Of a stretch of DNA of 64,000 nucleotides, positions 2,029 through 64,000 are shown one piece after another. The position numbers and the translations under genes are program-made. The notes below the pieces were generated by a model, which did no database searches, was not told the DNA's origin, and worked only from the letters and a program-made list of their open reading frames with translations. Numbering within the stretch: the stretch's first letter is position 1; the number at the start of each line of letters is the position of its first letter. The stretch is from an uncultured delta proteobacterium (GTDB lineage: Bacteria; Myxococcota_A; Polyangia; Polyangiales; Polyangiaceae), in contig CAWGVN010000002.1 in the NCBI GenBank assembly GCA_963826085.1, positions 1 to 64,000 on the forward strand. Reading direction: 5' to 3'.

Positions 2029-2880
2029 TTATGCCGCCTGAGGCAGCGAGTGGGTCAACTCCATTTCGACGGGCGTGCGGTAGCCGATGGCAGAATGCCG
2101 CCTGACCGCGTTGTAGTAGTTCTCGATGTAGTCGGCGATGGCGTCGTAGGCCTCGGTCCTCGTCTGGAATGCGCAGCCGTGCACCAGCTCCTTCTTCAGC
2201 GTCGCGAAGAAGCTCTCTGCGACAGCGTTGTCCCAGCAGTCGCCGACGCGGCTCATGCTGGCGTCGATGCCGTGCGCCCGCAACCGCTCGCGGTACTCGG
2301 CGCTGGTGTACTGGCTCCCGCGGTCGGTGTGATGCACGAGCCCAGGCGCAGGAGAGCGACGCATGAGCGCCTGGTCGAGCGCAGCCAGCGCGAGCTCGCG
2401 GTCGAGCGAGCTGCGCAACGCCCAGCCGACGACACGACGCGAGTACAGGTCGAGCAGCACCGCCAGATAGGCCCAGCCCTCTGCCGTCCAGATGTACGTG
2501 ATGTCGCCGACCCAGCCTGCGTCCGGCCGTGCGGTGTTGAAGTTGCGCTCGAGGACGTTGGGCGCGACGGGATGGTGCGCTGCGCGCTCGGTCGTGCGCT
2601 TGAAGCGTCGCTTGGGCCTGCATTTCAAGCCGTCTTCGCGCATCAGCCGCTCGACGCGCTTGCGTCCCACACGATGGCCGCGCGCCTGCAGCTCGGCATG
2701 CACGCGTGGGCTGCCATAGCGCTCGCGATGCTCGCTGTGGATCGCCCGGATTTCAGCCTTCAGACGCTCGCACTGCCGCGCTCGCGCCGACGGCTTTGCC
2801 TTCGTCCAGGCGTAGTAGCCGCTGCGCGTCACCTGCAGCACATCGCACAGCAGCCCCACCGCGAACGTCGCCTTCTCCAC
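2029..2880 (-). CDS. IS3-family transposase OrfB (rve/DDE integrase catalytic domain), expected to be expressed as an OrfAB fusion by -1 frameshifting
   Basis: WVGDITYIWTAEGWAYLAVLLDLYSRRVVGWAL ... HHTDRGSQYTS ... GDCWDNAVAESFFATLKKE ... NYYNAVRRHSAIGYRTPVE gives a DDE triad context typical of IS3 OrfB. Confidence 0.8.
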   Translation of the reverse strand: MEKATFAVGLLCDVLQVTRSGYYAWTKAKPSARARQCERLKAEIRAIHSEHRERYGSPRVHAELQARGHRVGRKRVERLMREDGLKCRPKRRFKRTTERAAHHPVAPNVLERNFNTARPDAGWVGDITYIWTAEGWAYLAVLLDLYSRRVVGWALRSSLDRELALAALDQALMRRSPAPGLVHHTDRGSQYTSAEYRERLRAHGIDASMSRVGDCWDNAVAESFFATLKKELVHGCAFQTRTEAYDAIADYIENYYNAVRRHSAIGYRTPVEMELTHSLPQAA

Positions 2881-7943: not shown

Positions 7944-8171
7944 ATGAACGCTCGCAAGATCCGCGTCGAGAACGGTCGCATCAAGCTGGACGAGCCGACG
8001 ACGCTGCCTGATGGTGCCGAGGTGGAACTGGTGATCCTCAGTGGCGACGAGCTCGACGACGAGGAGCGAACTCGACTGCATGCATCCCTGGAGCGTGCGC
8101 TCGACGACGAGGACGCAGGCCGTGTCGTGGACGCGGACGAATTCCTCGCACAAATCCGCGCCGGGACGTGA
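7944..8171 (+). CDS. type II antitoxin (ParD/Phd-like addiction-module antidote component)
   Basis: A 75-aa acidic protein MNARKIRVENGRIKLDEPTTLPDGAEVELVILSGDELDDEERTRLHASLERALDDEDAGRVVDADEFLAQIRAGT. Its stop overlaps the GTG start of the downstream ParE-like toxin (GTGA). Confidence 0.5.
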   Translation: MNARKIRVENGRIKLDEPTTLPDGAEVELVILSGDELDDEERTRLHASLERALDDEDAGRVVDADEFLAQIRAGT

Positions 8172-8464
8172 AGCTCGAGATCCTCGAGGAAGCGCGAGCC
8201 CAGTACCGCAGGCAGAACGCCTGGTGGCGGCAGCATCGCGACGCGAAGACCCTGTTTGCCGAGGAATTCCTCGCAGCGCTCCGGCACCTGCGCAATGCGC
8301 CCGAAAGCGGTTCGCTCTACGCCCGGAAGCGGGGACGGACCATCCGACGCTGGCTCATGCCCAAGACGAAGTACCACATCTACTACCGCTTCGATCGCCG
8401 GCTGGATCTCGTGATCATCTACTCCGTGTGGGGTGCGCGACGGGGTGTTGGTCCGGAGTTGTGA
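8168..8464 (+). CDS. parE: ParE/RelE-family toxin
   Basis: A 98-aa protein with ...ARKRGRTIRRWLMPKTKYHIYYRFDRRLDLVIIYSVWGARR, a ParE-type C-terminal signature. It is coupled to the upstream antitoxin. Confidence 0.65.
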   Translation: MKLEILEEARAQYRRQNAWWRQHRDAKTLFAEEFLAALRHLRNAPESGSLYARKRGRTIRRWLMPKTKYHIYYRFDRRLDLVIIYSVWGARRGVGPEL

Positions 8465-8618
8465 GATTCTCCGCTTGGCGCCGCACGACCGCCCGCAGAC
8501 CGTATCCAGAATGCCAACATCGACGAGCTGGATCGCTGGGCGCTGTGCGTGCTCGACGCGACGAGCCTCGACGAGGTCCTCGCCGACTGACGCTGCTCGG
8601 GGCGCGGCCGTCGCGCCG

Positions 8619-9044
8619 TGAGCCTGGACCTGACCGGTGGCAGGGCGCAGCAGGCCTGCGCCTCGATGGAGAGCGGCACGCTGACGAGCGCCAGGTACTC
8701 GCTCTTCAGCGAGTGCCAGAAGCGCTCGATGACCGCGATCGAGCCATGTTTCCCGAGCGCGCCGAAGCGCGGCCGCACGCCGTGCTTCTCGCACCAGTCG
8801 CGGTACTCCTTCCGGAATTGCACGCCCTTGTCGGAGAGATGTAGCGCGGCGCGCGGCCGGCCTTGTGGACCGCGGCATCGAGCAGCGCGCAGATCTCCTT
8901 GGCCGTCGGCTCCTTCCTGAAAACCGTGAAAGCGATCGGCGCGCGCGAGAAGTGATCGAGCACGACGCCGATCCACCACGCGAAGGGCCAGCTGTTGCCG
9001 TCCAAATTGACGTCGTAGCGCGCAGCCGAATTGCGGTCGTACGA
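8619..9044 (-). pseudogene. DDE transposase (IS3/IS481-like integrase core) remnant, frameshifted and lacking N-terminal HTH
   Basis: Two minus-strand frames carry consecutive integrase-core pieces: YDVNLDGNSWPFAWWIGVVLDHFSRAPIAF...ISPTRACNSG, then (other frame) LHLSDKGVQFRKEYRDWCEKHGVRPRFGALGKHGSIAVIERFWHSLKSEYL. Confidence 0.55.
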
Positions 9045-49161: not shown

Positions 49162-52146
49162 ATGCGCGTGCCGGGCCAGTGGCCGCGTATGCGCGCTTGG
49201 CCCATCGCTCTGACGGTCGTGCTAGCGGCCTGTGGAGGTCCGCGGGCGACGCACTTCCCGCCGGCAACACCAAAGACACCCGCGACAGCGTCCGACGCGC
49301 GTGCTCCGCAGCAGACGGCGCCGGTCGTCGATCCGCTCGCGCCTCTGCCACCCGGGGCCGTTGCTCGCTGCGGCACGGCGCGCCTGCGCTTCCTGTCGAA
49401 GCCCATGTCCGCGTCGATCGACAATCGCGGCCGGATCCTTTCGATAGAGGACGTCGACGGACAGCGCGTGCTGCGCGACGTGGTCAAGGGAACGGTCGTC
49501 AGGACGCTTCCCGATTCGGCAGTAACCCAGCTGACCCCGGATGGAACCCGGCTGGTGTCGATCCGCCCAGGCCAGCACCAGGGCCAGCTCGTGCTGGTCG
49601 TCTCGCCGGCATCCGGCAAGGAGTCGGGACGCGTCGGGCTCGAGCTGCCGCCGGAGCCGGAGCAGCGGGCGCCGGGCGTTGTCGATCGCCTGCAGATCAC
49701 CGCCGACAGTCGTCGCGCCCTGGTGATCGCCGGCACGACCTTGTTCGCCGTTGCGCTCGACACGCCGCGCATCGAATGGAAGAAGACGCTCCAGGGCGAC
49801 AGCATCGAAGCGCTGAGCGGCGACGGAACGCGAGCGCTGGTGCTTACCCGGTTCCGGAAGGAAAACCGGGGAATGCTGGGCGTCCTTGCCGCGACCAATC
49901 GAAAAGGCGTGCTCTCCCTCGTCGACGCGCAGAGCGGCCGCACGCTGCGCGCGCTCGGCACGCCCAAGGCTCCGTTCGAATACTCGGACGCGGCGCTCTC
50001 GCACGACGGGACTCGCGCGTTCATCGGCAAGGTGGATGGCCTGGATGTGATGGACGAAAAGACCGGCACGCTGCGCCCGTTCGTCCACATCGTGGCTCAC
50101 GGTCTCGGCGGGCTATCGGTGGGCCGCGGTCGGCTGCTGGTCTCCCCCGACGACAGCCGCCTGACGTACCAACAGCACGGCGTGTTCCTGATCGACGCGA
50201 AGAGCGGCCGCCTGCACAAGTTGCCGGAGAAGGCGAGCCCGCTCGCGTTCTCTCCGGACGGGCGCCTGCTGCTCTACCGCGTCGTCAGTGCGGCGCGCGT
50301 GCAGGGCAAACACTACCGCGTTCCTGCGGGGCACCGCGGGCCGGTCACCACGCTCGCCTTCACCGACGGCGGACGGCGTCTGGTCTCGGCGGCCGGCTCG
50401 GTGCGCACCTGGGATTTGCGGACTGGAGCCCCGCTCGGAGCGAGGGACCTGGACGGCGTCGACGTGCGCGTTGCCGCTTCCCCGCGCGGAGGTACGGCCA
50501 TCGCGGCGGGTGACCTGGTGCTGGCGCGCGGCGGTCGAACCCTCCGCATCGGGGCGCCCGATCGCCTGTCGCGGATCGCGTTCGCGCCCGACGGCGAGCT
50601 GTTCGTGGGAACGCTGAACGAGTTCAGCGCGTTTCGCTCGCACGCCGCAGGGGTCAGGTTGCAGCCCGGCCGCACGCTGTTCCGGCTCTCGCCCGAGGGT
50701 CGCACTCTGGCCTCCGCGAACGTCGGCGACGTGGTCGGCTTGGCCGTCGCCCCTCACGGCAAGCGCATCGCCGTCTACGCGCGGAGCTTCGCCTTCAACC
50801 GACAGCGCGGCAGCGTCGAGCTGCGCGATGCGGCGACGCTCGACCGGCTAGAGCCGCTGCCCGGGCTCGAGCGGTACAACACGGCGCTCGCGTTTGCGGG
50901 AGCAGGGCGGCTGATCGCGTCGAGCAGCGCCGAGGGCGCCGCCCTGTACGAACTGGCGTCGCACAGTATCACGCGGCGCTTTGCGCTCGGCCACTGCTGC
51001 GGGGCGTTGGCGGTGTCGCCGGACGGCAAGCTGTTGGCGCTCGGCGCCGACGCCGACGTGCAGCTCTGGGATATCGACCAGCGCGAGCTCCGTGGCGTGT
51101 TCCGTGGTCACTCCGGCGATGTCGATGCGCTGGCGTTTTCTCCGGATGGAAAGCTGCTCGCGTCGGGCAGCCGCGACACCAGCGTGTTGGTCTGGGACAC
51201 CGGCAGAGCTCCCCCTCCGCCGCATCCGCCAGCGCCGGCGATTGACGAGCCCGCCGTCCCGTCGCTCGCCGCGCTTGCGCGTGGCCGTCGCGGCGAGCGC
51301 ATCGCGATGCTGTCGCACGGCAAGCTGGCGGCTCCAGGCGAGAAGCTGCCGCGGCTGCCGGCAGGCCTGCTGGCGGTGTCGCGCGGCCCGGCCGCGAGCT
51401 GCGTCATCACCGCTGCACGCAAGGTGATGTGCTGGGGCGGCACGCTGGGCTCGAAATCGACGGCACTGCGACTTGTACCGGGCGTTTCCAATGCGCATCG
51501 CATCGCGGTCGGCCTGGCCTACGCCTGCGCCATCGACGGCGCCGGCAGGCTGAGCTGTTGGGGCTCGCTCGGCGGAGCGGTCAGCGACCAGGCGCCTGCG
51601 ACGCTTGCGCTGCCGGGGAAGGTCCGCGACATCCAGATCGGTCTCGCGCACGCGTGCGCGCTAATCGACAGCGGCCATGTGCTGTGCTGGGGCGACAACA
51701 ACGCGGGACAGCTCGGCATCGGCATTGCGCCCTACGCGCGCACTCCCACCGAGGTTGTGGGGATCTCCGACGCCGTGGCGATCGCGGTCGGCCAGCAACA
51801 CAGCTGCGCGCTCGGCCATGCGGGCAGCGTGCTGTGCTGGGGCGACAACGGCTCGGACCAGCTCGGCGACGGAACGGGGGTCGCCAGCCGTGCGCCGGTT
51901 CGTGTGCGCGGCCTGCGCCCCGCTTCTTCAATCGCTGCGGAGCAGAGCGCCACGTGCGCCGTCGTCGATGCCCGCGTCATGTGCTGGGGGCGACTGGCCG
52001 GTTTCCGCCGCAGCGAGGTGCACTTCGTCGAGCCCACCGCGGTCGACGCTCTGGGCAAGGCCTCGACGGTCCGCCTGGTGGCCGATCACGTCTGCAGCGA
52101 AGACGGCGCGGCGGTCCGATGTGCGCGCTTCCGTCGCCGGCTATAG
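49162..52146 (+). CDS. WD40/beta-propeller + RCC1-repeat lipoprotein
   Basis: Signal and lipobox (IALTVVLAACGG). The middle region has WD40-like repeats (FRGHSGDVDALAFSPDGKLLASGSRDTSVLVWD; GHRGPVTTLAFTDGGRRLVSAAGSVRTWDL). The C-terminal third has RCC1-like repeats (CWGDNNAGQLGIG; CWGDNGSDQLGDGT; HSCAL/HACAL). Confidence 0.7.
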   Translation: MRVPGQWPRMRAWPIALTVVLAACGGPRATHFPPATPKTPATASDARAPQQTAPVVDPLAPLPPGAVARCGTARLRFLSKPMSASIDNRGRILSIEDVDGQRVLRDVVKGTVVRTLPDSAVTQLTPDGTRLVSIRPGQHQGQLVLVVSPASGKESGRVGLELPPEPEQRAPGVVDRLQITADSRRALVIAGTTLFAVALDTPRIEWKKTLQGDSIEALSGDGTRALVLTRFRKENRGMLGVLAATNRKGVLSLVDAQSGRTLRALGTPKAPFEYSDAALSHDGTRAFIGKVDGLDVMDEKTGTLRPFVHIVAHGLGGLSVGRGRLLVSPDDSRLTYQQHGVFLIDAKSGRLHKLPEKASPLAFSPDGRLLLYRVVSAARVQGKHYRVPAGHRGPVTTLAFTDGGRRLVSAAGSVRTWDLRTGAPLGARDLDGVDVRVAASPRGGTAIAAGDLVLARGGRTLRIGAPDRLSRIAFAPDGELFVGTLNEFSAFRSHAAGVRLQPGRTLFRLSPEGRTLASANVGDVVGLAVAPHGKRIAVYARSFAFNRQRGSVELRDAATLDRLEPLPGLERYNTALAFAGAGRLIASSSAEGAALYELASHSITRRFALGHCCGALAVSPDGKLLALGADADVQLWDIDQRELRGVFRGHSGDVDALAFSPDGKLLASGSRDTSVLVWDTGRAPPPPHPPAPAIDEPAVPSLAALARGRRGERIAMLSHGKLAAPGEKLPRLPAGLLAVSRGPAASCVITAARKVMCWGGTLGSKSTALRLVPGVSNAHRIAVGLAYACAIDGAGRLSCWGSLGGAVSDQAPATLALPGKVRDIQIGLAHACALIDSGHVLCWGDNNAGQLGIGIAPYARTPTEVVGISDAVAIAVGQQHSCALGHAGSVLCWGDNGSDQLGDGTGVASRAPVRVRGLRPASSIAAEQSATCAVVDARVMCWGRLAGFRRSEVHFVEPTAVDALGKASTVRLVADHVCSEDGAAVRCARFRRRL

Positions 52147-52189
52147 AAGAAGTCTTGATCCCCATGGATGCCGACCTACTGTGTCATCC

Positions 52190-53467
52190 GTGGCGGACAG
52201 GGAAAGCCGGATCTCGTTCAAGTCGGTGTTCATCGCGGTGTTCCTGGGCACGGCGCTGGTGGTGGCGGCGATGTTCGTCAACAGCCGCCGCCCCGCGGTC
52301 GAGCGCGGGCAGCCGACTCCGCAGCTCGTGGAGGCCACCGGCAAGTGCGCCGAGTGCCACCGTCACGAGACGTTGGCGATCGTCCACCAGTACGAGATGA
52401 GCCGGCACGCCCGGCAGGGCGTCAACTGCCTCGACTGCCACCGCGCCGCCCCCGGTCAGAAGACCCAGGAGCACAAGGGGTTCACCATCGCCGTGAGCCT
52501 GACCGCGAAGAACTGCGCGCAATGCCACGCGGCGGAATACCGGCAGTACGAGCGCAGCCGGCACGCGGCGCCGGCGTGGGCCGCGGTCAACGGCGCGGAG
52601 GATTTCTCGAAAGGACAGCTCGCGGAGGGCGAGCGCTACCACAAGGGTTGGGTCGACCGGAAACCGAACGCGCTGGCCATGCTGGAGGGCGATGCGGCGA
52701 TGCGGCGGGGCTGCGACAGCTGTCACAGCATCGGCAAGCCCAATGCGGACGGCTCGCTCGGCACCTGCACCGACTGCCACTCGCGTCACGACGCGTCGGT
52801 GGCCACGGCCCGGCTGCCCACGACTTGCGGCCAGTGCCACATGGGGCCGGACCACTCGCAGATCGAGATCTACGACGAGTCGAAGCATGGCGTGCTGTTC
52901 AACGCCGAGCGCGCCAGCATGAACCTCGGGGCATTCCCCGACCGGCTGACCACCAAGGACATGCCCGTGCCGACCTGCGCCACCTGCCACATGAGCGGCC
53001 TGGAGGGGATGGGGGTCACTCACGACATGAGCGAGCGGCTCTCCTGGTACCTGTTCGAAGCCGTCTCCAGGAAGCGGCCGAACTATCTCCAGGGCCAGAC
53101 CAAGATGAAGGAGGTCTGCACGAAGTGCCACGCGTCGAGCGGCGTGAAGCGCTTCTACGACAACGCCGAACGGGTCGTGCAGGACACCAACGCGAAGGTC
53201 CAGAGCACGCTCGCGATCGTGGACGGCTTGAGGAAGGACGGGCTGCTCACGCCCAAGCCCTTCGACGAGCCCATCGAGTTCATGGCGTTCGACCTGTGGC
53301 ACTACTTCGGTCGCACCACCAAGCACGGCGCCTTCATGGGAGGCGCGGACTTCGTGCAGTGGCACGGCAACTACGAGCTGTTGCGACACAAGGTGCAGAT
53401 CGAAGCGGCGGCTCGGGAAATCCGCGCGCGCGCTGCGAACAAGCCGGAGCCGCATGCGACTCCCTGA
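52190..53467 (+). CDS. octaheme c-type cytochrome (eight CxxCH motifs) with N-terminal membrane anchor
   Basis: CxxCH motifs: CAECH, CLDCH, CAQCH, CDSCH, CTDCH, CGQCH, CATCH, CTKCH. N-terminal hydrophobic helix FIAVFLGTALVVAAMFV. GTG start, 52181 or 52190. Confidence 0.75.
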   Translation: MADRESRISFKSVFIAVFLGTALVVAAMFVNSRRPAVERGQPTPQLVEATGKCAECHRHETLAIVHQYEMSRHARQGVNCLDCHRAAPGQKTQEHKGFTIAVSLTAKNCAQCHAAEYRQYERSRHAAPAWAAVNGAEDFSKGQLAEGERYHKGWVDRKPNALAMLEGDAAMRRGCDSCHSIGKPNADGSLGTCTDCHSRHDASVATARLPTTCGQCHMGPDHSQIEIYDESKHGVLFNAERASMNLGAFPDRLTTKDMPVPTCATCHMSGLEGMGVTHDMSERLSWYLFEAVSRKRPNYLQGQTKMKEVCTKCHASSGVKRFYDNAERVVQDTNAKVQSTLAIVDGLRKDGLLTPKPFDEPIEFMAFDLWHYFGRTTKHGAFMGGADFVQWHGNYELLRHKVQIEAAAREIRARAANKPEPHATP

Positions 53468-54317
53468 GCGCCTGCGCGGTCTATCGCCTCACTGGCTGGT
53501 GGAGCTGTTCGCCACGAGCAACATCGCGTTCCTCGCCCTGGACATCTACCTGGCGCATCTGGAGAACAATTTCGCGCGCCATGTGGAGTGGCTGCCGGTG
53601 CTCTTCTCCTGCGTCGCACCGCTGGCGCTGGTGCCGGGGCTGTTCGGCGGGCGCTACCAGCGCGGGGCATGCCGCCGGCTCGGCTACGTCGTCGGCATCG
53701 CGGCGCTCCTGGTCGGCGTCGCCGGCATGCTGCTGCATCTCCAGAGCGCGTTCTTCGAGCTGAGGACGCTCAAGAGCCTGGTGTACACCGCGCCTTTCGT
53801 GGCGCCGCTTTCCTACGTCGGAGTGGGGCTCTTGCTGATCCTCAACCGGATGGAGCCGCGCGCGTCGCCGGACTTCGGTGTGTGGGTGCTGTTTCTGGCG
53901 ACGGGCGGTTTTGTCGGCAACCTGGCGCTGTCGCTGCTGGACCACGCGCAGAACGGCTTCTTCTCCGCGGCCGAGTGGATACCCGTGGTGGCCGCGGCAT
54001 TCGGTCTCGCCTTCTTCTCCACGGCCTTGTTCCGGCGCGGCCGGCCGTACATCAAGCTGTCACTCGGCGTTGCGGCGCTGGAAGGCGCCGCCGGTCTGCT
54101 CGGCTTCGGGCTGCACCTGGCGGCGAACCTCGGCCAATCGAACGCGCCGCTCGGGGACCGCCTCGTCTACGGCGCGCCGCTCTTCGCACCGCTGCTCTTC
54201 ACGGATCTCGCAGCGCTCGCGGCGCTCGGCCTATGGCAGATGTTGCGGACCGCCGCGACCGGTCCTCTCCGCCGCACTACGCCGGTATCGACGGCAGGCG
54301 CCGCACCAGCTCCTTGA
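53454..54317 (+). CDS. polytopic membrane protein coupled to the octaheme cytochrome
   Basis: Overlaps the cytochrome stop by 14 nt. It has 7 to 8 hydrophobic helices. No family recognized. Confidence 0.55.
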   Translation: MRLPERLRGLSPHWLVELFATSNIAFLALDIYLAHLENNFARHVEWLPVLFSCVAPLALVPGLFGGRYQRGACRRLGYVVGIAALLVGVAGMLLHLQSAFFELRTLKSLVYTAPFVAPLSYVGVGLLLILNRMEPRASPDFGVWVLFLATGGFVGNLALSLLDHAQNGFFSAAEWIPVVAAAFGLAFFSTALFRRGRPYIKLSLGVAALEGAAGLLGFGLHLAANLGQSNAPLGDRLVYGAPLFAPLLFTDLAALAALGLWQMLRTAATGPLRRTTPVSTAGAAPAP

Positions 54318-58110: not shown

Positions 58111-58232
58111 CCGGGGGCTCGCGGGCGTACGTGGACCGCGAGCGGAACATTGCGCTCACGGCGGTGGGAAAGCGTTGCGGGCGGGCAATTGCCGGGAGCA
58201 TTTCCCGATCCAGAGGGATAGGATTCTCCACC

Positions 58233-59361
58233 ATGCGTGGCTTGGGGCTTGTTTCCGGATTGCTTGCCTGCAGTGTGCTCATGGCGGGATGCGCGGCGGA
58301 GCGGGACGGGACTCCGTCCGACGGTCTCGGCTCCACCGGGCAGGCAGTGAAAGTGTGCGCGGCGGGCCCGACGACCAAGGGCATCGACGTGTCGCACTGG
58401 CAGGGCACCATCGACTGGCAGCAGGTCAAGGGCGACGGTATCCAGTTCGCATTCGCGAAGGCGACCCAGGACACGACCTTCATCGATCCCGAGTTCGCGA
58501 ACAACTGGGCGGGCATGAAGCAGGCAGGCATCCTGCGCGGCGCGTATCACTTCTTTAGCGCGAGCGTGGACGGAACGGCGCAGGCGGATCACTTCGTGCA
58601 GGTGATGGGTCCGCTGGCGGACGGCGACCTGCCGCCGGTGCTCGATCTCGAGACGTTCCGACGGTCAGTCGGCGGCGACGGTGATCCAGCGCGCGAAGGA
58701 TTTCATGGCGGAAGTCCAGAAGCTGACGGGACGCACCCCGGCGCTATATTCCGGGGGTTTCTTCAAGGGAACGCTCGGCAACCCGTCCGGCTTCTCGCAA
58801 TACTACCTCTGGGATGCGAACTGGGGCGTGAGCTGCCCCAACATCCCCGACGCCGGCTGGAGCACGTGGACCTTCTGGCAGTACACCGATAGCTCGAGCG
58901 TGGCAGGCATCGGCAACGGCAACACCGCCGCTGTGGACGCCGACGAGTTCAACGGCACGCTCCAGGATCTCGTCAAGCTCACCTCTCCGGGCACTGGAGG
59001 CAGCGGCGGCACCGGAGGCGCGGGCGGTGCCGGAGGAGCGGCAGGTTCTGCTGGAGCTGCAGGCACGGCGGGTAGCGGCGGCTCCGTGGACGGCGGCGTC
59101 GGTGGAACCGGCGGCATCTCGACCGGCGGCAGCGCCGGCGCGAGCTATGACGCAGGCATGGGCGGAGCGGGCCCCACCACCGACGACGGCGGGCTCGGCG
59201 CGAAGCCGCCGCCGTATCCCGCGTGGTTCGACTCGAGCTGCGCGCTGGCGGACTCGCCGGCAGGTGAGGGGAGCGGCTGGCTCGTCTTCGCCACGTTGGG
59301 CATCGTGGCTGTCGCGCGGCGGCGCCGGCGCGCGCCGCGCGGATGCGCCGCCGAGCGCTAG
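58233..59361 (+). pseudogene. GH25-family lysozyme lipoprotein with MYXO-CTERM-like tail; apparent frameshift near 58660
   Basis: Frame A: lipobox plus GIDVSHWQGTIDWQQVKGDGIQFAFAKATQDTTFIDPEFANNW...PPVLDLE (GH25 catalytic N-terminus). Frame C continues DGQSAATVIQRAKDFMAEVQKLTGRTPALYSG...WTFWQYTDSSSVAGIGN. The tail ends CALADSPAGEGSGWLVFATLGIVAVARRRRRA. Confidence 0.6.
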
Positions 59362-59772
59362 TACTGCTCGAGGCCGACCAGGGAACGGCGTGCGAGCCGC
59401 CGTGCCCAGGCGAGGGTGCGCGCCACATCGAGGAGGGAGGCTGCGACCCGACGCATCATGCTGCGGCGCGCGATGGGTGCAGATGTTTGCATGCTGCTCG
59501 AGGGTGCATGGGGCGTGCCACGCATTGACGCCTGACAAGACCGGCGGAAATCAGCCCCGTGCGCCCGCGTAGGCCCGCGCGCGTGTGGGGATGGCACGCA
59601 CAGTGCAAACCAGTTGTGGCATGTCGAACAAGGCGTGCGCGGTGGAAGCGGACCGCTCCCGCGCGCGCGGTATCTGCGCGAACCTGGGCAAGTGCGGTTC
59701 CCCGTCCGGCGCAGAGCTGGCGCGCTCCGGGAGCGCGCCCGCAAGGCTTGCACGATCCGCGTGGAAACCGCG

Positions 59773-61275
59773 ATGACGGCGCCCATCCCTGTCCCGAAAA
59801 CGAGCGGTCGCGGCCGGCTCGGTCGCTACGACGCGATTGTCGTCGGCAGCGGGGTGGGGGGATCGGTCACCGCAGCGCTGTTGGCGGCGCGGGGCTTTTC
59901 CGTTCTCGTGGTCGAGAAGAACCCGGTGCTGGGCGGCATCCTGGCTTCCACGCGCCGCGACGGTTTCAAGCTGGACGTGGGCAGCCACCTGATCTCGCGC
60001 GGCGAGCGCGGCCCGCTTGGAGAGGTGCTGCGCTCGCTCGGGCTCGACCAACCGCGCTTCATCACGCATCCCATTCCCGTGCGCTCGCGCGGCATGTTCG
60101 AGCTCGCGGCGCCGGAGCGCCGCCGGCAGCTGCCCGCGTACGCGCTGGAGGCGGCGCGGCGCCTCTCCCTGCCGGCCCGCGAGACCATGGCGCTGGGGCG
60201 AATGCTGTTCCAGGTGTTCACGCTGACCGAATTCGAGCTGAGGCGCTGGGATCGCCGCACGCTGGACGAGTTCATCCGCCAGCACAGCGAACACCCGGGC
60301 GCGTACTTCCTGTTCAGCTTCCTGGCGAGCATCTTCTTCGTCCTGCCGCCGTGGAAGGTGTCGGCCGGCGAGGCGATCCGCTGTCTGCGTTCGGTGATCT
60401 CCGCCTACTCCCTGTCGTACGTGGAGGGCGGGATGGACAGCATTCCGCACGCCCTGCTCGGTCTGGTCGGGCCCGCGGGTGGCGATCTGGTCGTGGGACG
60501 TCAGGTCACTGCCATCCGCCAGAACCACTGTGGTCTGCAGGTGGTGACCGACGATGGAGCCGAGTACCGCTCGCCGGTCGTGGTCTGCAACATGGCAGCG
60601 GCCGACGTAGTGGCGCTGTGTGACGGTCTCGACATACCCCCGGAATATGCCGCGCGCGTGGCGGCCATCGAGGGGTCGGGCAATGCCCACCAGCTCAAGC
60701 TCGCCCTGCGCCGCCCGCTGATCGAGGAAGGATGCCTCATCGGCGGCGTGTCGCTGGAGGGCAGGACGCTGGACGACCTGAGCCTGGAGTTGATGCAGAA
60801 CACCGTCGGCGCCATCGACGAGGGGCGCGTGTCCGATCCGCTCGCCATCTACGCCCCGGTGCCGACCAACTACGATCCGTCACTGGCGCCGGAGGGCGCG
60901 CAGCTGGTGGTGGCCAGCATCTACGGGCCGGTGAACCCAGATCCCGCCGACCCGCCAGAAAAGTGGCGCGAGCGGGCGCTCCAGGCTTTCGCGAGCATCG
61001 TGCCGCATCTGTACGACGAGCTCTTGTTCGTCGAGTTCGAGCCGGTGCCGGCGATCGGCGCGTGGATGGGCAAGCACAACCGCGCCGCGATCACCAACGG
61101 CCAGCTCCCCGGACAGGTCGGGCGTGATCGGTTGCCTGTGACGACGCCGATGCCCGGTCTGTACCTGTGCGGCGATGGCGCGGGCGGACGCGGCATCGGC
61201 ACGGAGCTGGCCGCGTCGTCAGCCGTGGAAGCGGTGCAGGCCATCCTCTCGCACGCCAGGTCGGAGGCGGCATGA
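59773..61275 (+). CDS. phytoene-desaturase (CrtI) family FAD-dependent oxidoreductase
   Basis: YDAIVVGSGVGGSVTAALLAARGFSVLVVEKNPVLGGILASTRRDGFKLDVGSHLI is the CrtI-type dinucleotide-binding N-terminus. C-terminal ...LYLCGDGAGGRGIGTELAASSAVEAV. Confidence 0.7.
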   Translation: MTAPIPVPKTSGRGRLGRYDAIVVGSGVGGSVTAALLAARGFSVLVVEKNPVLGGILASTRRDGFKLDVGSHLISRGERGPLGEVLRSLGLDQPRFITHPIPVRSRGMFELAAPERRRQLPAYALEAARRLSLPARETMALGRMLFQVFTLTEFELRRWDRRTLDEFIRQHSEHPGAYFLFSFLASIFFVLPPWKVSAGEAIRCLRSVISAYSLSYVEGGMDSIPHALLGLVGPAGGDLVVGRQVTAIRQNHCGLQVVTDDGAEYRSPVVVCNMAAADVVALCDGLDIPPEYAARVAAIEGSGNAHQLKLALRRPLIEEGCLIGGVSLEGRTLDDLSLELMQNTVGAIDEGRVSDPLAIYAPVPTNYDPSLAPEGAQLVVASIYGPVNPDPADPPEKWRERALQAFASIVPHLYDELLFVEFEPVPAIGAWMGKHNRAAITNGQLPGQVGRDRLPVTTPMPGLYLCGDGAGGRGIGTELAASSAVEAVQAILSHARSEAA

Positions 61276-61940
61276 ACGACCTGATCGCTTCTGTCGTGTG
61301 GCTGCTGGTGCTCGCGGGCGGCGTCGGCTGCTGCCTGCTTCTGCATCAGCTCGGGCTTCGGGCGACCTATGTGCGCGATCTGCTCCATGTTGGAACCGGC
61401 GTGTGGGTGCTGGGCTGGCCCTGGTGGCGCGGAGTCGCCGCGCCGGCATTGATCCTGGGCTTCGCGCTGGCCGTGACGGCGGCGCTGCCGCTGCTGGCGC
61501 GGCGCAGCAGCTGGGCCGCGCTTGTCGTCGGCAGCTTCGCGAGCGGTGACGAGCGCTGGACCGGCCTGACGCTGTACGTGGTCGCGTACGCCGCGCTCAC
61601 CTGCGCGGGCCTGGCCGACCGCGCGTTCGCCGCGGCTGCTGCCCTGCTCGCTCTGTCGCTCGGCGACGGCATCGGCGGCGCTGTGGGCCGCCGTTTCGGC
61701 GCACATCGTTACCGCGCGCCCGGCGGCAAGGAAAAGACACTGGAAGGCTCGCTGGCGGTGGCGCTGGCCGCGGCGGCCGGTGTCGCGATCGCAGCCTGGC
61801 GCTTCGGCGCGCACCCAGGCGCGTCGGGCATCGTCGGGCTCGGACTCGTCGCCGCGGTTGCGGAAGCGCTCGCTCCTCGCGGCAGCGACAACGTGATCGT
61901 GCCGGCGGCCGTGTGGGGCGCGGCCAGATTGTTCACATAG
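61272..61940 (+). CDS. CTP-transferase-1 family membrane protein, polyprenol/phytol/dolichol-kinase-like
   Basis: The start overlaps the upstream stop (ATGA). There are 6 to 7 TM helices. Motif ...SLGDGIGGAVGRRFGAHRYRAPGGKEKTLEGSLAVAL matches the GDGxAxxVGRRFG...K(S/T)xEGS signature shared by phytol kinase, dolichol kinase and CdsA. Confidence 0.55.
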   Translation: MNDLIASVVWLLVLAGGVGCCLLLHQLGLRATYVRDLLHVGTGVWVLGWPWWRGVAAPALILGFALAVTAALPLLARRSSWAALVVGSFASGDERWTGLTLYVVAYAALTCAGLADRAFAAAAALLALSLGDGIGGAVGRRFGAHRYRAPGGKEKTLEGSLAVALAAAAGVAIAAWRFGAHPGASGIVGLGLVAAVAEALAPRGSDNVIVPAAVWGAARLFT

Positions 61941-61949
61941 GAGAGACAG

Positions 61950-62903
61950 ATGGCACACGCAGTGCATCCGGGGACGGCGCCGCACGATCGCGAGCGACAC
62001 GGTAACATCGCACAGGGGATCTGGCGCGTCGCGGATCCGAAGATCACCCTGGCATCGGTCGCGTCGATGATCCTCGGCGCGGCGATCGCGGCGTGGCAGG
62101 GGCCCATTGCCTGGGGCTGGCTCGCGCTGACCGTGCTGGGCGTCTTCTTCTTCGAGGCCGCGAAGAACGCGTCCGGCGAGATCTTCGACTGGGACTCCGG
62201 CACGGACCAGGCCCTCGCCGAGAACGAGCGGACGCCATTTTCCGGCGGCAAGCGCGTGATCGTCGACGGGCTGATGACGCGCCGCCAGGCGGCGTGGATG
62301 GCGGCTGTGTTCTACGCACTGGGCATCGCGGCGGGGCTGGCGATCGTCGCCCTGCGCGAGCCGCGCGTGCTGTGGCTCGGCATGCTGGGCGCCGGGCTCG
62401 CCTTCTTCTACCACGCGCCGCCGTTCAAGCTCTCCTACCGCGGGCTCGGCGAGACGGCCGTGGCGCTGGCGTACGGACCGGTGATCGCGTGCGGCACGTA
62501 CCTGGTGCAGCGCCACGGCGTGTCGCTGGAGGTGCTGGTCGCGTCGCTGCCGCTCGGCGTGGCGATCATGGCGTTTCTCTGGATCAACGAGTTCCCCGAC
62601 GCGCGCGCGGACGAGCTGGCGGGCAAGCGCACGCTGGTGGTGCGGCTCGGGCGCCCTCGCGCGGCGCGCGCGTTCTCGCTGCTCGTGGCTGTGACCTACG
62701 CGGGGCTCTTGGCGCTTCCGCTCGTCGGATTGCCGCTCGGGATCTGGGGCGGCTTCATCGGGTTGCCCTTCGCGGCACGTGCGGCGCGCAGGCTGATGCG
62801 CTTCCCGGAGACACCGGCGGAGCTGGTGCCGGCGCAGGGTCTGACGCTGCTGTCGTTCGTGCTGCTCGCGGTCGGGGCGGCGCTGGGGATGTGGCTTGGC
62901 TGA
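61950..62903 (+). CDS. UbiA-family aromatic/polyprenyl prenyltransferase
   Basis: 8 to 9 TM helices. Asp-rich motifs NASGEIFDWDSGTDQ and NEFPDARADELAGKRTLVVRLG (second DxxxD region) are typical of the UbiA superfamily. Confidence 0.75.
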   Translation: MAHAVHPGTAPHDRERHGNIAQGIWRVADPKITLASVASMILGAAIAAWQGPIAWGWLALTVLGVFFFEAAKNASGEIFDWDSGTDQALAENERTPFSGGKRVIVDGLMTRRQAAWMAAVFYALGIAAGLAIVALREPRVLWLGMLGAGLAFFYHAPPFKLSYRGLGETAVALAYGPVIACGTYLVQRHGVSLEVLVASLPLGVAIMAFLWINEFPDARADELAGKRTLVVRLGRPRAARAFSLLVAVTYAGLLALPLVGLPLGIWGGFIGLPFAARAARRLMRFPETPAELVPAQGLTLLSFVLLAVGAALGMWLG

Positions 62904-63834
62904 GGGCGTACAGAGGCGCCTGCACTTCGTGCTCGGCAAGGGCGGCGTCGGAAAATCGACGCTCGCTGCCGCGCTGGCGCTCGCCGCGAAGCGCCGCGGC
63001 GCGGAGGTGCTCGCGATCGAGCTCGGCGCGCCGGGCGGCTTGTCGCGCGCGCTCGGCGCGGAGCCGGCCCAGCCCGGAGCGATTGTCACGGCGCCGTCGG
63101 GCGTGGCGCTGAGCTGGTTCGACGGCGGGGCGGCGCTGTCCGAGTACCTCGGGCGCGTGGTGCGGCTCGGCCCGCTGCTCGACAAGGTCTTCGCCCATCC
63201 GCTCTACCGCGCGTTCGTCGACGCAGCCCCGGGCCTGAAGGAGCTGATGGCGATGGGCAAGGTGCGCGACGAGTACTCGCTGCACAAGGAGCACGGCCAG
63301 CCGCACTGGGACGTGGTGGTGGTCGACGCGGGCGCTTCGGGTCACGCCATCGAGCACCTGCGCATGCCGGCCGCCGCGGCGGAGACGTTCCACTCCGGGC
63401 GCGTGCATCGCGAGTCGCGCCGCGTCCATGCCCTGTTCGGCGATCCGGCAGAGACGTCGATCTGGGTGGTGGCGACGCCGGAGGAGATGCCGCTCGCCGA
63501 GGCGGCGGAGAGCGTGGCGAAGCTCGGCGACGCGGGGCTCGGCGTGACGCACGTCGTGGTCAATCGCTGCCGGCCGATCGCACCGGACGGCGTAGAGACT
63601 GTGCTCGCCACGATCGAAGCGCTGTCCGTAGCGGATGCCGCGCGACGCGCGGCCCGCGACGGGCTGGTCGTGTCGGCGCGGCGGGCGCTCGGCTGGCAGC
63701 AGATCCAGGAACGCGGCATCGCCGCCCTGGTCGAGCAGACAGGAGCGCGGCCGCTCAGGCTGCCCATCCTGCGGGAGGTGCACGCGCCGGAGCTGGCGGA
63801 GCTCGGCGAGATCCTCTGGGGGGCCGAAGCATGA
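62896..63834 (+). CDS. ArsA/GET3-family P-loop ATPase
   Basis: The start overlaps the UbiA stop. Deviant Walker A FVLGKGGVGKSTLAAALALAAKRRGAEVLAIEL. Switch regions DVVVVDAGASGHAIEHLRMP and ...IWVVATPEEMPLAEA. Confidence 0.7.
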   Translation: MAEGVQRRLHFVLGKGGVGKSTLAAALALAAKRRGAEVLAIELGAPGGLSRALGAEPAQPGAIVTAPSGVALSWFDGGAALSEYLGRVVRLGPLLDKVFAHPLYRAFVDAAPGLKELMAMGKVRDEYSLHKEHGQPHWDVVVVDAGASGHAIEHLRMPAAAAETFHSGRVHRESRRVHALFGDPAETSIWVVATPEEMPLAEAAESVAKLGDAGLGVTHVVVNRCRPIAPDGVETVLATIEALSVADAARRAARDGLVVSARRALGWQQIQERGIAALVEQTGARPLRLPILREVHAPELAELGEILWGAEA

Positions 63835-64000
63835 GCCTGGGCGCGCTGCTCGAGCAACACCGGCTCGTGGTGTGCGTCGGCACCGGCGGCGTCGGCAAGA
63901 CCACGCTCTCCGCCGCGCTGGCGCTGGGCGGCGCGCTTTCAGGGCGGCGCGCGATGGTGCTCACGATCGATCCGGCGCGGGCTCTTGCGCGCGCGCTCGG
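63831..64000 (+). CDS. second ArsA/GET3-family P-loop ATPase (5' part; continues beyond window)
   Basis: ATGA overlap with the previous gene. VVCVGTGGVGKTTLSAALALGGALSGRRAMVLTIDPARAL is the same deviant Walker A. Confidence 0.6.
   Translation, partial: MSLGALLEQHRLVVCVGTGGVGKTTLSAALALGGALSGRRAMVLTIDPARALARAL

Follow-up and report, generated by a model that had tools for sequence, protein, structure and literature searches.

The 3' end of the window (the whole 64,000-nt stretch of DNA that was analysed) carries a real five-gene, co-directional, translationally coupled operon (P1 to P5), which has stayed together across a clade of about twenty species-level genomes from uncultured soil Myxococcota. 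The predicted products are a CrtI-fold flavoprotein, a prenol-kinase-like membrane protein, a MenA/UBIAD1-type prenyltransferase and a pair of BagA/BagB-type ATPases (Table 1). We tentatively propose, at somewhat less than an even chance, that the operon serves to produce or salvage a lipid of the prenylated naphthoquinone type and to alter its tail, BagAB being an accessory driven by ATP. In the literature searched, no paper reported a trio of CrtI-fold, phytol-kinase-like and MenA-like proteins combined with BagAB-type ATPases, in agreement with a preliminary description of this DNA, which knew of no described pathway of such composition.

Table 1. Positions and predicted products of the operon genes, with the region upstream of them
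Feature	Position	Strand	Description
P1	59773-61275	+	FAD flavoprotein, CrtI/amine-oxidase fold, 500 aa, PF1083/3KA7-like subgroup
P2	61272-61940	+	membrane protein, 222 aa, VTE5/FOLK/PolK-type prenol-kinase-like, CTP-transferase fold
P3	61950-62903	+	UbiA-superfamily prenyltransferase, 317 aa, MenA/UBIAD1-type
P4	62896-63834	+	BagA-like Get3/ArsA-fold ATPase, 312 aa, TTG start
P5	63831-64000	+	BagB-like ATPase, N-terminal 56 aa only; gene cut by the window end
Upstream intergenic region	59362-59772	.	presumed operon start; 411-nt gap after the preceding + strand ORF

The preliminary description had placed a translationally coupled operon at 59773-64000, and both its coordinates and its junctions were confirmed. 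Read from the sequence, the junctions from P1 to P5 were -4, +9, -8, and -4 nt in order. The P1 stop overlaps the P2 start in an ATGA at 61272-61275, and the gap between P2 and P3 (gagagacag, 61941-61949) follows a P2 stop that is straddled by GGAGA. P3 and P4 overlap by 8 nt, with the TTG start of P4 at 62896 lying inside TTGGCTGA, and P5 starts in an ATGA at 63831, where P4 ends at 63834. A promoter scan detected no sigma-70-like promoter inside the operon, and no match to the sigma-70 consensus was found in the upstream gap. One terminator-like site was detected inside the operon, which is not above chance expectation. The same junctions recur in related loci, indicating that the coupling goes beyond chance.

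The MAGs with the operon are labelled Polyangiaceae, Kofleriaceae, or Myxococcales. The flavoprotein, kinase, and UbiA genes occurred together in 20 of 40 species-level loci. The BagA gene adjoined the flavoprotein gene in 21 of the 22 related loci carrying the latter (downstream and co-directional in 8, as in the window; upstream and divergent in 12; upstream and co-directional in 1), showing that the ArsA/GET3-like pair pointed out earlier is conserved with the enzymes; besides BagA, no other neighbour was conserved in the flanks of these 22 loci. The 4-nt flavoprotein/kinase overlap was present in 22 of 23 loci, and the 4-nt BagA/BagB overlap was present in 17 of 18 loci with both ends placeable (7 nt in L009). 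UbiA and BagA genes overlapped in all eight co-directional loci, by 8 nt in six and by 11 and 4 nt in the others, and the BagA start was the same TTG in seven of these eight. In relatives with the divergent arrangement, the region upstream of the flavoprotein gene spans 34-186 nt and is common to bagA. In L004 and L005, the most closely related loci, the BagB gene continues for about another 1.1 kb, and the genes beyond it lie on the opposite strand. The adjacency of the five genes outlasts at least two rearrangements, and the flanking genes are wholly different.

The ATG start of P1 at 59773 is supported by its relatives, which are 494-500 aa long and can be aligned with it from the first residue onward. 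P1 matched Pfam Amino_oxidase (3.2e-22, residues 32-492) and NAD_binding_8 (8.8e-15). The top Foldseek matches of its AF2 model (pLDDT 89) were 3ka7, 4rep, 3nrn, 4dgk, and 5mog at 14-20% identity, with E values of 1e-20 to 1e-27 for 3ka7, 4rep, 4dgk, and 5mog. The FAD Rossmann motif and the overall fold of the model thus place P1 in the CrtI/amine-oxidase structural superfamily. In the profile search, the best PDB matches were 3nrn (PF1083; 4e-22) and 3ka7 (3e-17). Matches to NCBIfam carotenoid-enzyme models lay mostly in the N-terminal FAD-binding region (crtI_fam, 54.9 bits versus a cutoff of 238.1; CrtD, 75.3 versus 549.7; carot_isom, 66 versus 586.9), and an assignment as a CrtI, CrtD, or CRTISO carotenoid enzyme was rejected, as P1 was below all subfamily and equivalog cutoffs. 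The fold of the CrtI-family enzyme described earlier was therefore borne out, but not a kinship with carotenoid enzymes. P1 is a divergent family member in an uncharacterised subgroup whose nearest sequence relatives are archaeal.

The CTP-dependent prenol kinases include PolK, VTE5, and FOLK, and the model of PfPolK shows eight transmembrane helices together with an Arg-Lys-x-x-His clamp; the kinases of the phytol-phosphorylation route are treated in the same paper (PMC10849223). P2 resembles these enzymes in fold, topology, and motifs, with about eight transmembrane helices, a clamp (R-D-x-x-H in P2 and R-K-x-x-H in its distant relatives), and the pattern GD...G...K(S/T)xEG. The phytol/dolichol-kinase signature quoted in the preliminary description was present as LGDGIGGAVGRRFG...KEKTLEGS. 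The predicted model is built of about eight long helices, and its fold is similar to those of CarS and CdsA. P2 gave no Pfam or NCBIfam match even at E <= 10, so that neither Pfam CTP_transf_1 nor an equivalent model recognised it; CTP_transf_1 was reached weakly by distant family members only (P0201, 24.9 bits versus 24). CdsA was rejected as an identity, since P2 matched no CdsA or CTP_transf_1 model and the likeness is at the fold level only. As had been suggested, P2 belongs to the phytol/dolichol-kinase (VTE5/FOLK/PolK) branch of the CTP-transferase fold and is a putative prenol kinase.

The P2 profile also reached bacterial fusions of a VTE5-like N-domain with a DUF92 C-domain, which made up at least 7 of the 150 top-ranked representatives of the family. 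We take DUF92 to be the family of the plant phytyl-phosphate kinase VTE6. Because P2-like domains are fused to DUF92, P2 would fit as the kinase that opens a two-step activation of prenols. In other Myxococcota, P2 orthologs stand alone in housekeeping contexts, including beside gap-pgk-tpiA-secG, and the copies from the operon group as a derived clade within these stand-alone orthologs; the role of P2 may thus be a general one in polyprenol-phosphate metabolism. The kinase-like gene is therefore not exclusive to the operon.

P3 matched Pfam UbiA PF01040 (2e-30, 106.3 bits versus a gathering score of 34.2), and both Asp-rich NxxxDxxxD motifs, NASGEIFDWDSGTD and NEFPDARADELAGKRT, were intact and aligned with those of UBIAD1, which argues for membership in the UbiA prenyltransferase superfamily. 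The best PDB match was UBIAD1 (8djk, 9.8e-8). In the subfamily HMM classification, by which an ordinary MenA was checked for, P3 was MenA/UBIAD1-like at 105-118 bits, yet the cutoffs of all nine specific MenA models were missed. The top NCBIfam model was the cyanobacterial/plant MenA TIGR02235 (117.8 bits versus 225), and further MenA models included NF004751 (116.7 versus 264) and TIGR00751 (89.2 versus 102.15). Other UbiA subfamilies scored lower (ChlG, 47 bits; DGGGPS NF009521, 18.5; HPT NF009525, 15.9). Among the acceptors considered in the preliminary description, these scores favour a MenA-type one and lend no support to the ether-lipid (DGGGPS) and tocopherol/plastoquinone (HPT) options. 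Taken together, P3 is an aromatic prenyltransferase of the MenA/UBIAD1 type whose catalytic motifs are intact; DHNA is only the best guess for its acceptor because all MenA equivalog cutoffs were missed. No men/mqn genes were found in the operon, the window (tblastn), or the conserved flanks, and no methyltransferase, prenyl-diphosphate synthase, or DUF92 kinase was found in the operon or the window (tblastn).

The kinase-like/MenA-like pairing recurs independently in another lineage. In two archaeal-looking loci (L047 and L048), a 31%-identical P2 relative is convergent to a 29%-identical MenA-like UbiA gene, and the pair is adjoined by genes for a UbiE/MenG-like methyltransferase and a short-chain prenyl-diphosphate synthase. 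The same convergent pair was found in a myxococcotal locus (L041). Among 80 control loci of distant members of the same superfamily, none had a UbiA, CrtI-like, ArsA-like, or DUF92 neighbour.

P4 matched the NCBIfam BagA model NF053622 (2e-33, 116.2 bits versus a cutoff of 400) and Pfam ArsA_ATPase (5.7e-20), and its best PDB match was Rv3679 (6bs3_A, 2.7e-22). P5 matched the BagB model NF053621 (5.2e-17, 62 bits versus 521, on its first 56 residues only). Its full-length ortholog in a related locus (L002; 372 aa, 82% identical over the common part) matched Rv3680 (6bs3_B) at 1.8e-51. The P-loops quoted in the preliminary description were present, GKGGVGKST in P4 and GTGGVGKTT in P5; the latter is without the signature lysine, as is that of Rv3680 (GAGGVGKTT). 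Neither protein reached the BagA or BagB equivalog cutoff. The two are adjacent paralogs, each best matching its own M. tuberculosis subunit, and are predicted to form a BagA/BagB (Rv3679/Rv3680)-type Get3/ArsA heterodimeric ATPase. The ArsA/GET3 fold first assigned to them was thus retained, but not a generic ArsA identity, since the BagA/BagB type matched best. M. tuberculosis BagA and BagB form a Get3-like heterodimeric ATPase that reportedly protects against glycerol and nitric-oxide toxicity (Hu 2019 and Whitaker 2020, cited in PMC10597346). No mechanistic tie between BagAB and lipids was seen here or, in that source, for mycobacteria.

In the proposed scheme, the operon would build or maintain a membrane lipid of the prenylated naphthoquinone type, comparable to menaquinone or phylloquinone. 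P2 would phosphorylate a free prenol, possibly salvaged or recycled, with CTP. Because a prenol monophosphate is no UbiA donor, a pathway step is missing from the operon; a second kinase, outside the operon's gene set, would yield the prenol diphosphate, a step that relatives may have as the fused DUF92 domain. P3 would then move the prenyl chain onto a DHNA-like head group, and P1 may saturate, hydrate, or cis/trans-isomerise the isoprenoid chain, with either the free prenol or the prenylated product as its substrate. BagAB, earlier proposed as possible chaperones, would spend ATP on a hydrophobic client, either the membrane enzymes while they are inserted or assembled or else the prenyl lipid. 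A bolder version, which we consider doubtful, is that BagAB are dedicated polyprenyl-lipid partners that extract, shield, or hand over the long hydrophobic prenol or prenylquinone among P1-P3, and that P1 is a new saturase or cis/trans isomerase of prenols or prenyl chains. Such an enzyme might, for instance, make prenols salvaged from prey or plants usable as quinone tails, or give a bacterium a lipid resembling dolichol. If true, the long-unexplained stress phenotype of mycobacterial BagAB could be a lipid or quinone phenotype.

The naphthoquinone-type module was weighed against other explanations. P3 could be the housekeeping MenA of the organism, with functionally unrelated passengers kept beside it by recent common ancestry. 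The narrow miss of TIGR00751, the JGI name of P3 homologs (1,4-dihydroxy-2-naphthoate octaprenyltransferase), and their 63-87% identity across Myxococcota MAGs would suit such an enzyme. However, the five genes stay together through the rearrangements while the flanks change, the stop/start overlaps are conserved, P1 homologs are as conserved (60-85% identity) as those of P3, every specific MenA model is missed, and the P2-like/MenA-like pair reappears in an unrelated lineage, so we regard this explanation as quite improbable. A dolichol-like carrier-lipid module, which we judge unlikely, would have P1 saturate or isomerise a polyprenol and P2 phosphorylate it with CTP, the resulting modified polyprenyl phosphate serving envelope glycan assembly, and P3 and BagAB would work on this lipid or alongside it. 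Eukaryotic dolichyl phosphate is made by polyprenol reductase and then the CTP-dependent kinase DOLK, and in retinol the allylic double bond of the alpha-isoprene is saturated by RetSat, an enzyme of the CRTISO clade. P1 and P2 are the tightest pair by their overlap, one locus (L033) keeps BagAB, P1, and P2 without a nearby UbiA gene, and the lone P2 genes beside gap-pgk-tpiA-secG suggest a general role. Furthermore, one of the archaeal relatives of P1 is from Pyrococcus furiosus, which to our knowledge has neither carotenoids nor quinones. Most P2 homologs are named dolichol kinase by JGI, but KEGG-style names are weak evidence for a family without its own model. Moreover, this pathway has no place for a MenA-type aromatic prenyltransferase, an alpha-saturated prenyl phosphate is unusable as a UbiA donor, and P3 gave no decaprenyl-phosphate phosphoribosyltransferase-type match (NCBIfam, E <= 0.01).

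A carotenoid-tailoring cluster of the haloarchaeal CrtD-LyeJ-CruF type also unites a CrtI-family enzyme, a UbiA-family elongase, and a membrane protein, the three protein classes found in a single operon here; P1 homologs bear the JGI name prolycopene isomerase, and 4rep, a gamma-carotene desaturase, ranks high among the fold matches of P1. Against it, P1 is far under all carotenoid-enzyme cutoffs, P2 has a kinase/CTP-transferase fold and matches no Pfam family at E <= 10, that of CruF included, P3 best matches MenA and UBIAD1, and no crtB, crtE, or crtY gene is conserved nearby, which makes this origin highly improbable. Synthesis of isoprenoid ether lipids of the archaeal type, by a UbiA resembling DGGGPS, a cytidylyltransferase resembling CarS, and an enzyme that reduces or hydrates the chain, is hardly credible, given the low DGGGPS score of P3 next to its MenA scores, the ties of P2 to the prenol-kinase branch and DUF92 fusions rather than to CarS (no Pfam CarS match), and the lack of a conserved GGGPS or G1P-dehydrogenase gene near the cluster.

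Compared with known systems, PF1083 (3NRN) and M. mazei 3KA7 were the top sequence matches of the P1 profile and its third and first fold matches, respectively. The three proteins share an N-terminal G-x-H-x-I/L-x-x-G-x-x-GPL stretch, and P1 and 3KA7 also share an unusual C-terminal GDGAxGxG FAD motif; however, identity is only about 19-20%, and P1 is about 80 residues longer. As both archaeal proteins are uncharacterised, this likeness gives P1 no chemistry. For P4 and the P5 ortholog, M. tuberculosis Rv3679/Rv3680 were the best matches in PDB and NCBIfam, the genes here adjoin with a 4-nt overlap, and in both systems the B subunit is without the signature lysine. The scores are nevertheless far under the equivalog cutoffs, and the hosts are Myxococcota rather than Actinobacteria. 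In the myxococcotal operon, the pair is fixed beside isoprenoid-lipid enzymes, whereas we know of no such neighbours at the mycobacterial bagAB locus.

Menaquinone side-chain reductases, MenJ in mycobacteria and AF0648 in Archaeoglobus (PMC10821996), are likewise FAD enzymes paired with a MenA-type transferase and able to change tail saturation, but they are GGR-family rather than CrtI-fold proteins and do not share an operon with MenA, a prenol kinase, and ATPases. The plant and cyanobacterial phytol route to phylloquinone and tocopherol comprises VTE5, the DUF92 kinase VTE6, the MenA/ABC4 phytyltransferase, and the geranylgeranyl reductase ChlP. Unlike that route, the operon has its genes clustered in a non-phototroph without a DUF92 kinase, its flavoprotein has a CrtI fold and is not of the GGR/ChlP type, it includes two BagAB ATPases, and P3 is under the TIGR02235 cutoff. 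Both nevertheless combine a CTP-transferase-fold prenol kinase, a MenA-type prenyltransferase, and an FAD enzyme that would act on the chain, and the likeness extends to TIGR02235 topping the P3 list and to the DUF92 fusions of P2-family relatives.

Direct reading of the sequence confirmed five co-directional ORFs on the plus strand (P1 to P5); all junctions of the operon proposed in the preliminary description were re-read, and every motif quoted there was present. No sigma-70-like promoter was found inside the five-gene block, and its one terminator-like site was within chance expectation. A GC3-based gene caller chose an antisense ORF over P2, and the same artefact (family F22) was seen in relatives. 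The plus-strand frame of P2 is the real gene, because protein conservation, motifs and an AF2 model all support it. A protein identical to P2 is on record in a 331,564-nt NCBI/ENA contig, an exact look-up of P3 gave no match, and the content downstream of the window was inferred from relatives. By eye, the genes upstream of the operon (multihaem cytochrome, histidine kinase, PLD-like protein and GH25-like muramidase) are seemingly unrelated; the apparent split in the GH25-like gene probably stems from a 1-nt assembly error or marks a pseudogene.

Coordinates of the operon genes, of other features in the window and of P2 relatives at other loci
Feature	Sequence	Coordinates	Strand	Remarks
P1, CrtI-fold flavoprotein	window	59773-61275	+	stop overlaps P2 start in ATGA at 61272
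P2, prenol-kinase-like protein	window	61272-61940	+	9-nt spacer with GGAGA-like site before P3
P3, UbiA/MenA-like prenyltransferase	window	61950-62903	+	
P4, BagA-like ATPase	window	62896-63834	+	TTG start inside TTGGCTGA, 8-nt overlap with P3
P5, BagB-like ATPase	window	from 63831	+	starts in ATGA; runs off window end
Antisense ORF within P2	window	61367-61672	-	101 aa; third-position GC content 0.88
GH25-type muramidase-like gene	window	58131-59361	+	seemingly split across two frames (by eye)
GH25-like ORF, N-terminal part	window	58131-58892		to '...LPPVLDLE', then junk
GH25-like ORF, typical C-terminal part	window	58681-59361		'...TPALYSGGFF...WTFWQYT...'
CxxCH-rich ORF	window	51677-54317	+	fits multihaem c-type cytochrome (by eye); 14-nt overlap with next ORF (287 aa), which reads as polytopic membrane protein (by eye)
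IS3-family transposase OrfB-like ORF	window	2029-2880	-	N-terminal resemblance, '...YYAWTKAKPSARA...IRAIHSEHRERYGSPRV' (by eye)
Fusion proteins (VTE5-like prenol-kinase domain + DUF92)	P0192, P0203, P0207, P0212, P0224, P0241, P0259			representatives from P2 profile search
Fusion protein, same type	L044	2207-3655		
P2 directly after gap-pgk-tpiA-secG	L035, L036, L038-L040, L042	~8001-8690 in full-length loci		labelled Myxococcaceae or delta proteobacterium
P2 beside conserved 198-aa gene and carboxyltransferase-like gene	L015, L020, L023, L024, L026			
Archaeal-looking P2/UbiA cluster	L047	2062-8200		two F420-type PPOX-class oxidoreductases nearby
Archaeal-looking P2/UbiA cluster	L048	245-5558		see L047

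Scanning a single genome for each species yielded 40 loci with P2 relatives, all from uncultured Myxococcota MAGs except one weak match in a Clostridia MAG (L043). The flavoprotein, P2 and UbiA occurred jointly in 20 of these 40 loci. BagA adjoined the flavoprotein in 21 of the 22 flavoprotein-bearing loci, the sole exception being L030, where none lay within reach; it was downstream and co-directional, like in the window, in 8, upstream and divergent with a common region of 34-186 nt in 12, and upstream and co-directional in one (L033). The 4-nt P1/P2 overlap was kept in 22/23 loci, the 4-nt BagA/BagB overlap in 17/18 loci with both ends placeable, and the TTGGCTGA UbiA/BagA junction in 7/8 co-directional loci. 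Genes that stay adjacent through rearrangement, amid changing flanks, bear the standard signature of functional coupling. The neighborhood comparison within Myxococcota proposed in the preliminary description found the ArsA-type genes retained. No further gene family was conserved across the arrangements, and in the closest relatives bagB is followed by opposite-strand genes; therefore, the module is limited to these five genes. Two sets of candidate extra neighbors were discarded: V-type ATPase genes, common to Kofleriaceae-type loci, reflect plain synteny, and antisense ORFs are artefacts of the GC3-based gene caller.

The best match of P4 was BagA/Rv3679 of Mycobacterium tuberculosis (NCBIfam, 2e-33; PDB chain 6BS3_A, 2.7e-22), and that of P5 was BagB/Rv3680, with the full-length ortholog from L002 matching 6BS3_B at 1.8e-51. 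Like Rv3680, the B subunit has a P-loop without the signature lysine. The ArsA/GET3 pair noticed earlier is conserved beside the lipid enzymes and is of the BagA/BagB type rather than generic ArsA. PMC10597346 describes BagAB as a Get3-like heterodimer implicated in the glycerol and nitric-oxide tolerance of M. tuberculosis. Its cellular function lacks an explanation in the literature examined, and the conserved genomic link to a prenol-kinase-like protein, a MenA-type transferase and a CrtI-fold flavoprotein offers a concrete, testable idea of the role of this ATPase class.

As first proposed, the fold of P1 is that of CrtI and the amine oxidases (Pfam, 3.2e-22), but the protein fell far under every curated CrtI, CrtD and CRTISO cutoff (e.g., crtI_fam, 54.9 bits vs 238). 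Its confident AF2 model (pLDDT 89) matched Methanosarcina mazei oxidoreductase 3KA7, gamma-carotene desaturase 4REP, Pyrococcus furiosus PF1083 (3NRN), CrtI and plant PDS in fold, at only 14-20% identity. The best PDB sequences for the P1 profile were 3NRN (4e-22) and 3KA7 (3e-17), and the unusual C-terminal FAD motif of 3KA7, GDGAxGxG, recurs in P1. The closest sequence relatives of this divergent CrtI-fold enzyme are therefore uncharacterized archaeal proteins. A carotenoid C50 cluster was rejected, partly on the missed cutoffs. According to PMC10821996, which cites Mori 2015, CrtI homologs can work on non-carotenoid isoprenoid chains, one being responsible for hydroxyarchaeol in Methanosarcina.

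P2 had zero matches in Pfam and NCBIfam, and its profile returned only noise against PDB sequences; Pfam CTP_transf_1 was touched by a few distant family members. Among approximately 280 close homologs, the JGI names are phytol kinase or dolichol kinase. A 24-sequence profile retrieved 3,642 representatives (E <= 0.001), and the best 150 of them included at least seven fusions of a P2-like N-domain to a C-terminal DUF92 domain (the VTE6 family) and approximately 12 further proteins of 441-462 aa with a divergent DUF92-like C-terminus. Further P2-like and fusion proteins were on contigs of <2 kb. The P2 profile aligned by hhalign with the N-domain of one DUF92 fusion, a bacterial protein whose gene has housekeeping neighbors (bamA, ftsY), at 98.5% probability. 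Such fusions could carry out a two-step salvage of prenol to prenyl diphosphate in one protein in prokaryotes. The invariant P2 motifs are R-D-x-x-H, GDGxGGxxG, KxKxxEG and PRxxDN, with R-K-x-x-H in distant relatives; they have parallels in the Arg-Lys-x-x-His clamp and in the eight-helix model of the CTP-dependent prenol kinase PfPolK (PMC10849223). Homolog names, fusions, hhalign and motifs bear out the earlier phytol/dolichol-kinase claim and point to P2 as a predicted prenol-kinase-like member of the CTP-transferase fold; assignment to CdsA or CarS was rejected.

Outside the operon, a P2 ortholog stood alone in 16 other myxococcotal loci, many labelled Myxococcaceae, in either of two surroundings (table). 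In a neighbor-joining tree the operon P2s formed a derived clade nested among these lone copies, indicating that P2 is an older gene that was later recruited to the operon. L041 contained P2 and UbiA only, in convergent orientation. In the archaeal-looking locus L047/L048, a distant P2 relative (31% identity) is convergent to a MenA-like UbiA that is 29% identical to P3 and reaches 147 bits with MenA models. The neighbors include a short-chain prenyl-diphosphate synthase and a methyltransferase of UbiE/MenG type, so that the locus may itself represent a quinone-type cluster not yet described. As a control, a single-protein metagenome scan returned very distant superfamily members only, and none of its 80 loci (36 of them >=5 kb) had a UbiA, CrtI-like, ArsA-like or DUF92 neighbor. 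Hence, the pairing of a kinase-like with a MenA-like protein is specific; it arose or was kept at least twice.

P3 belongs to the UbiA superfamily, with both Asp-rich motifs intact, and its best solved relative is UBIAD1. The NCBIfam MenA models scored 105-118 bits, compared with 47 for ChlG, 18.5 for DGGGPS and 15.9 for homogentisate phytyltransferase, so of the acceptors first offered the ether-lipid (CarS/DGGGPS) and tocopherol/plastoquinone options were dropped and the menaquinone side was favored. P3 was under every MenA equivalog cutoff, the closest miss being TIGR00751 (89.2 vs 102.15 bits). From these scores, our best guess is a naphthoquinone-type acceptor.

The initial interpretation is thus supported in part and narrowed. 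In our leading, still tentative, reading, the five genes serve a prenylated naphthoquinone-type lipid: prenol phosphorylation would provide its tail, at least in part, the flavoprotein P1 would modify that tail, and BagAB would be an ATP-driven accessory. A less probable but serious rival, which the very tight P1-P2 pair would suit, is a carrier-lipid pathway resembling dolichol synthesis. Somewhat less probable still is the plainer explanation, a housekeeping MenA with passengers; the gain would then be modest, namely better annotation of approximately 500 to 2,000 metagenomic proteins.

All five proteins are divergent members of known folds, four of them in branches without a characterized member. 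Their conserved combination, above all BagAB fixed beside isoprenoid-lipid enzymes, appears undescribed: as the preliminary description had supposed, no paper describing it was found in the literature searched. Apart from those of plants and Plasmodium, few prenol salvage enzymes have been identified (PMC10849223). The operon suggests that non-phototrophic soil bacteria, too, salvage prenols and modify the tails, and its main value is as a testable lead on BagAB-type ATPase function and bacterial prenol salvage or modification. By tblastn, the window was negative for DUF92, for a UbiE-like methyltransferase and for a prenyl-diphosphate synthase, and no second kinase, head-group gene or methyltransferase was detected in the operon or the 64-kb window. 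In its logic the module comes closest, among known pathways, to the route by which plants and cyanobacteria phosphorylate phytol for phylloquinone, with VTE5, VTE6, MenA and ChlP.
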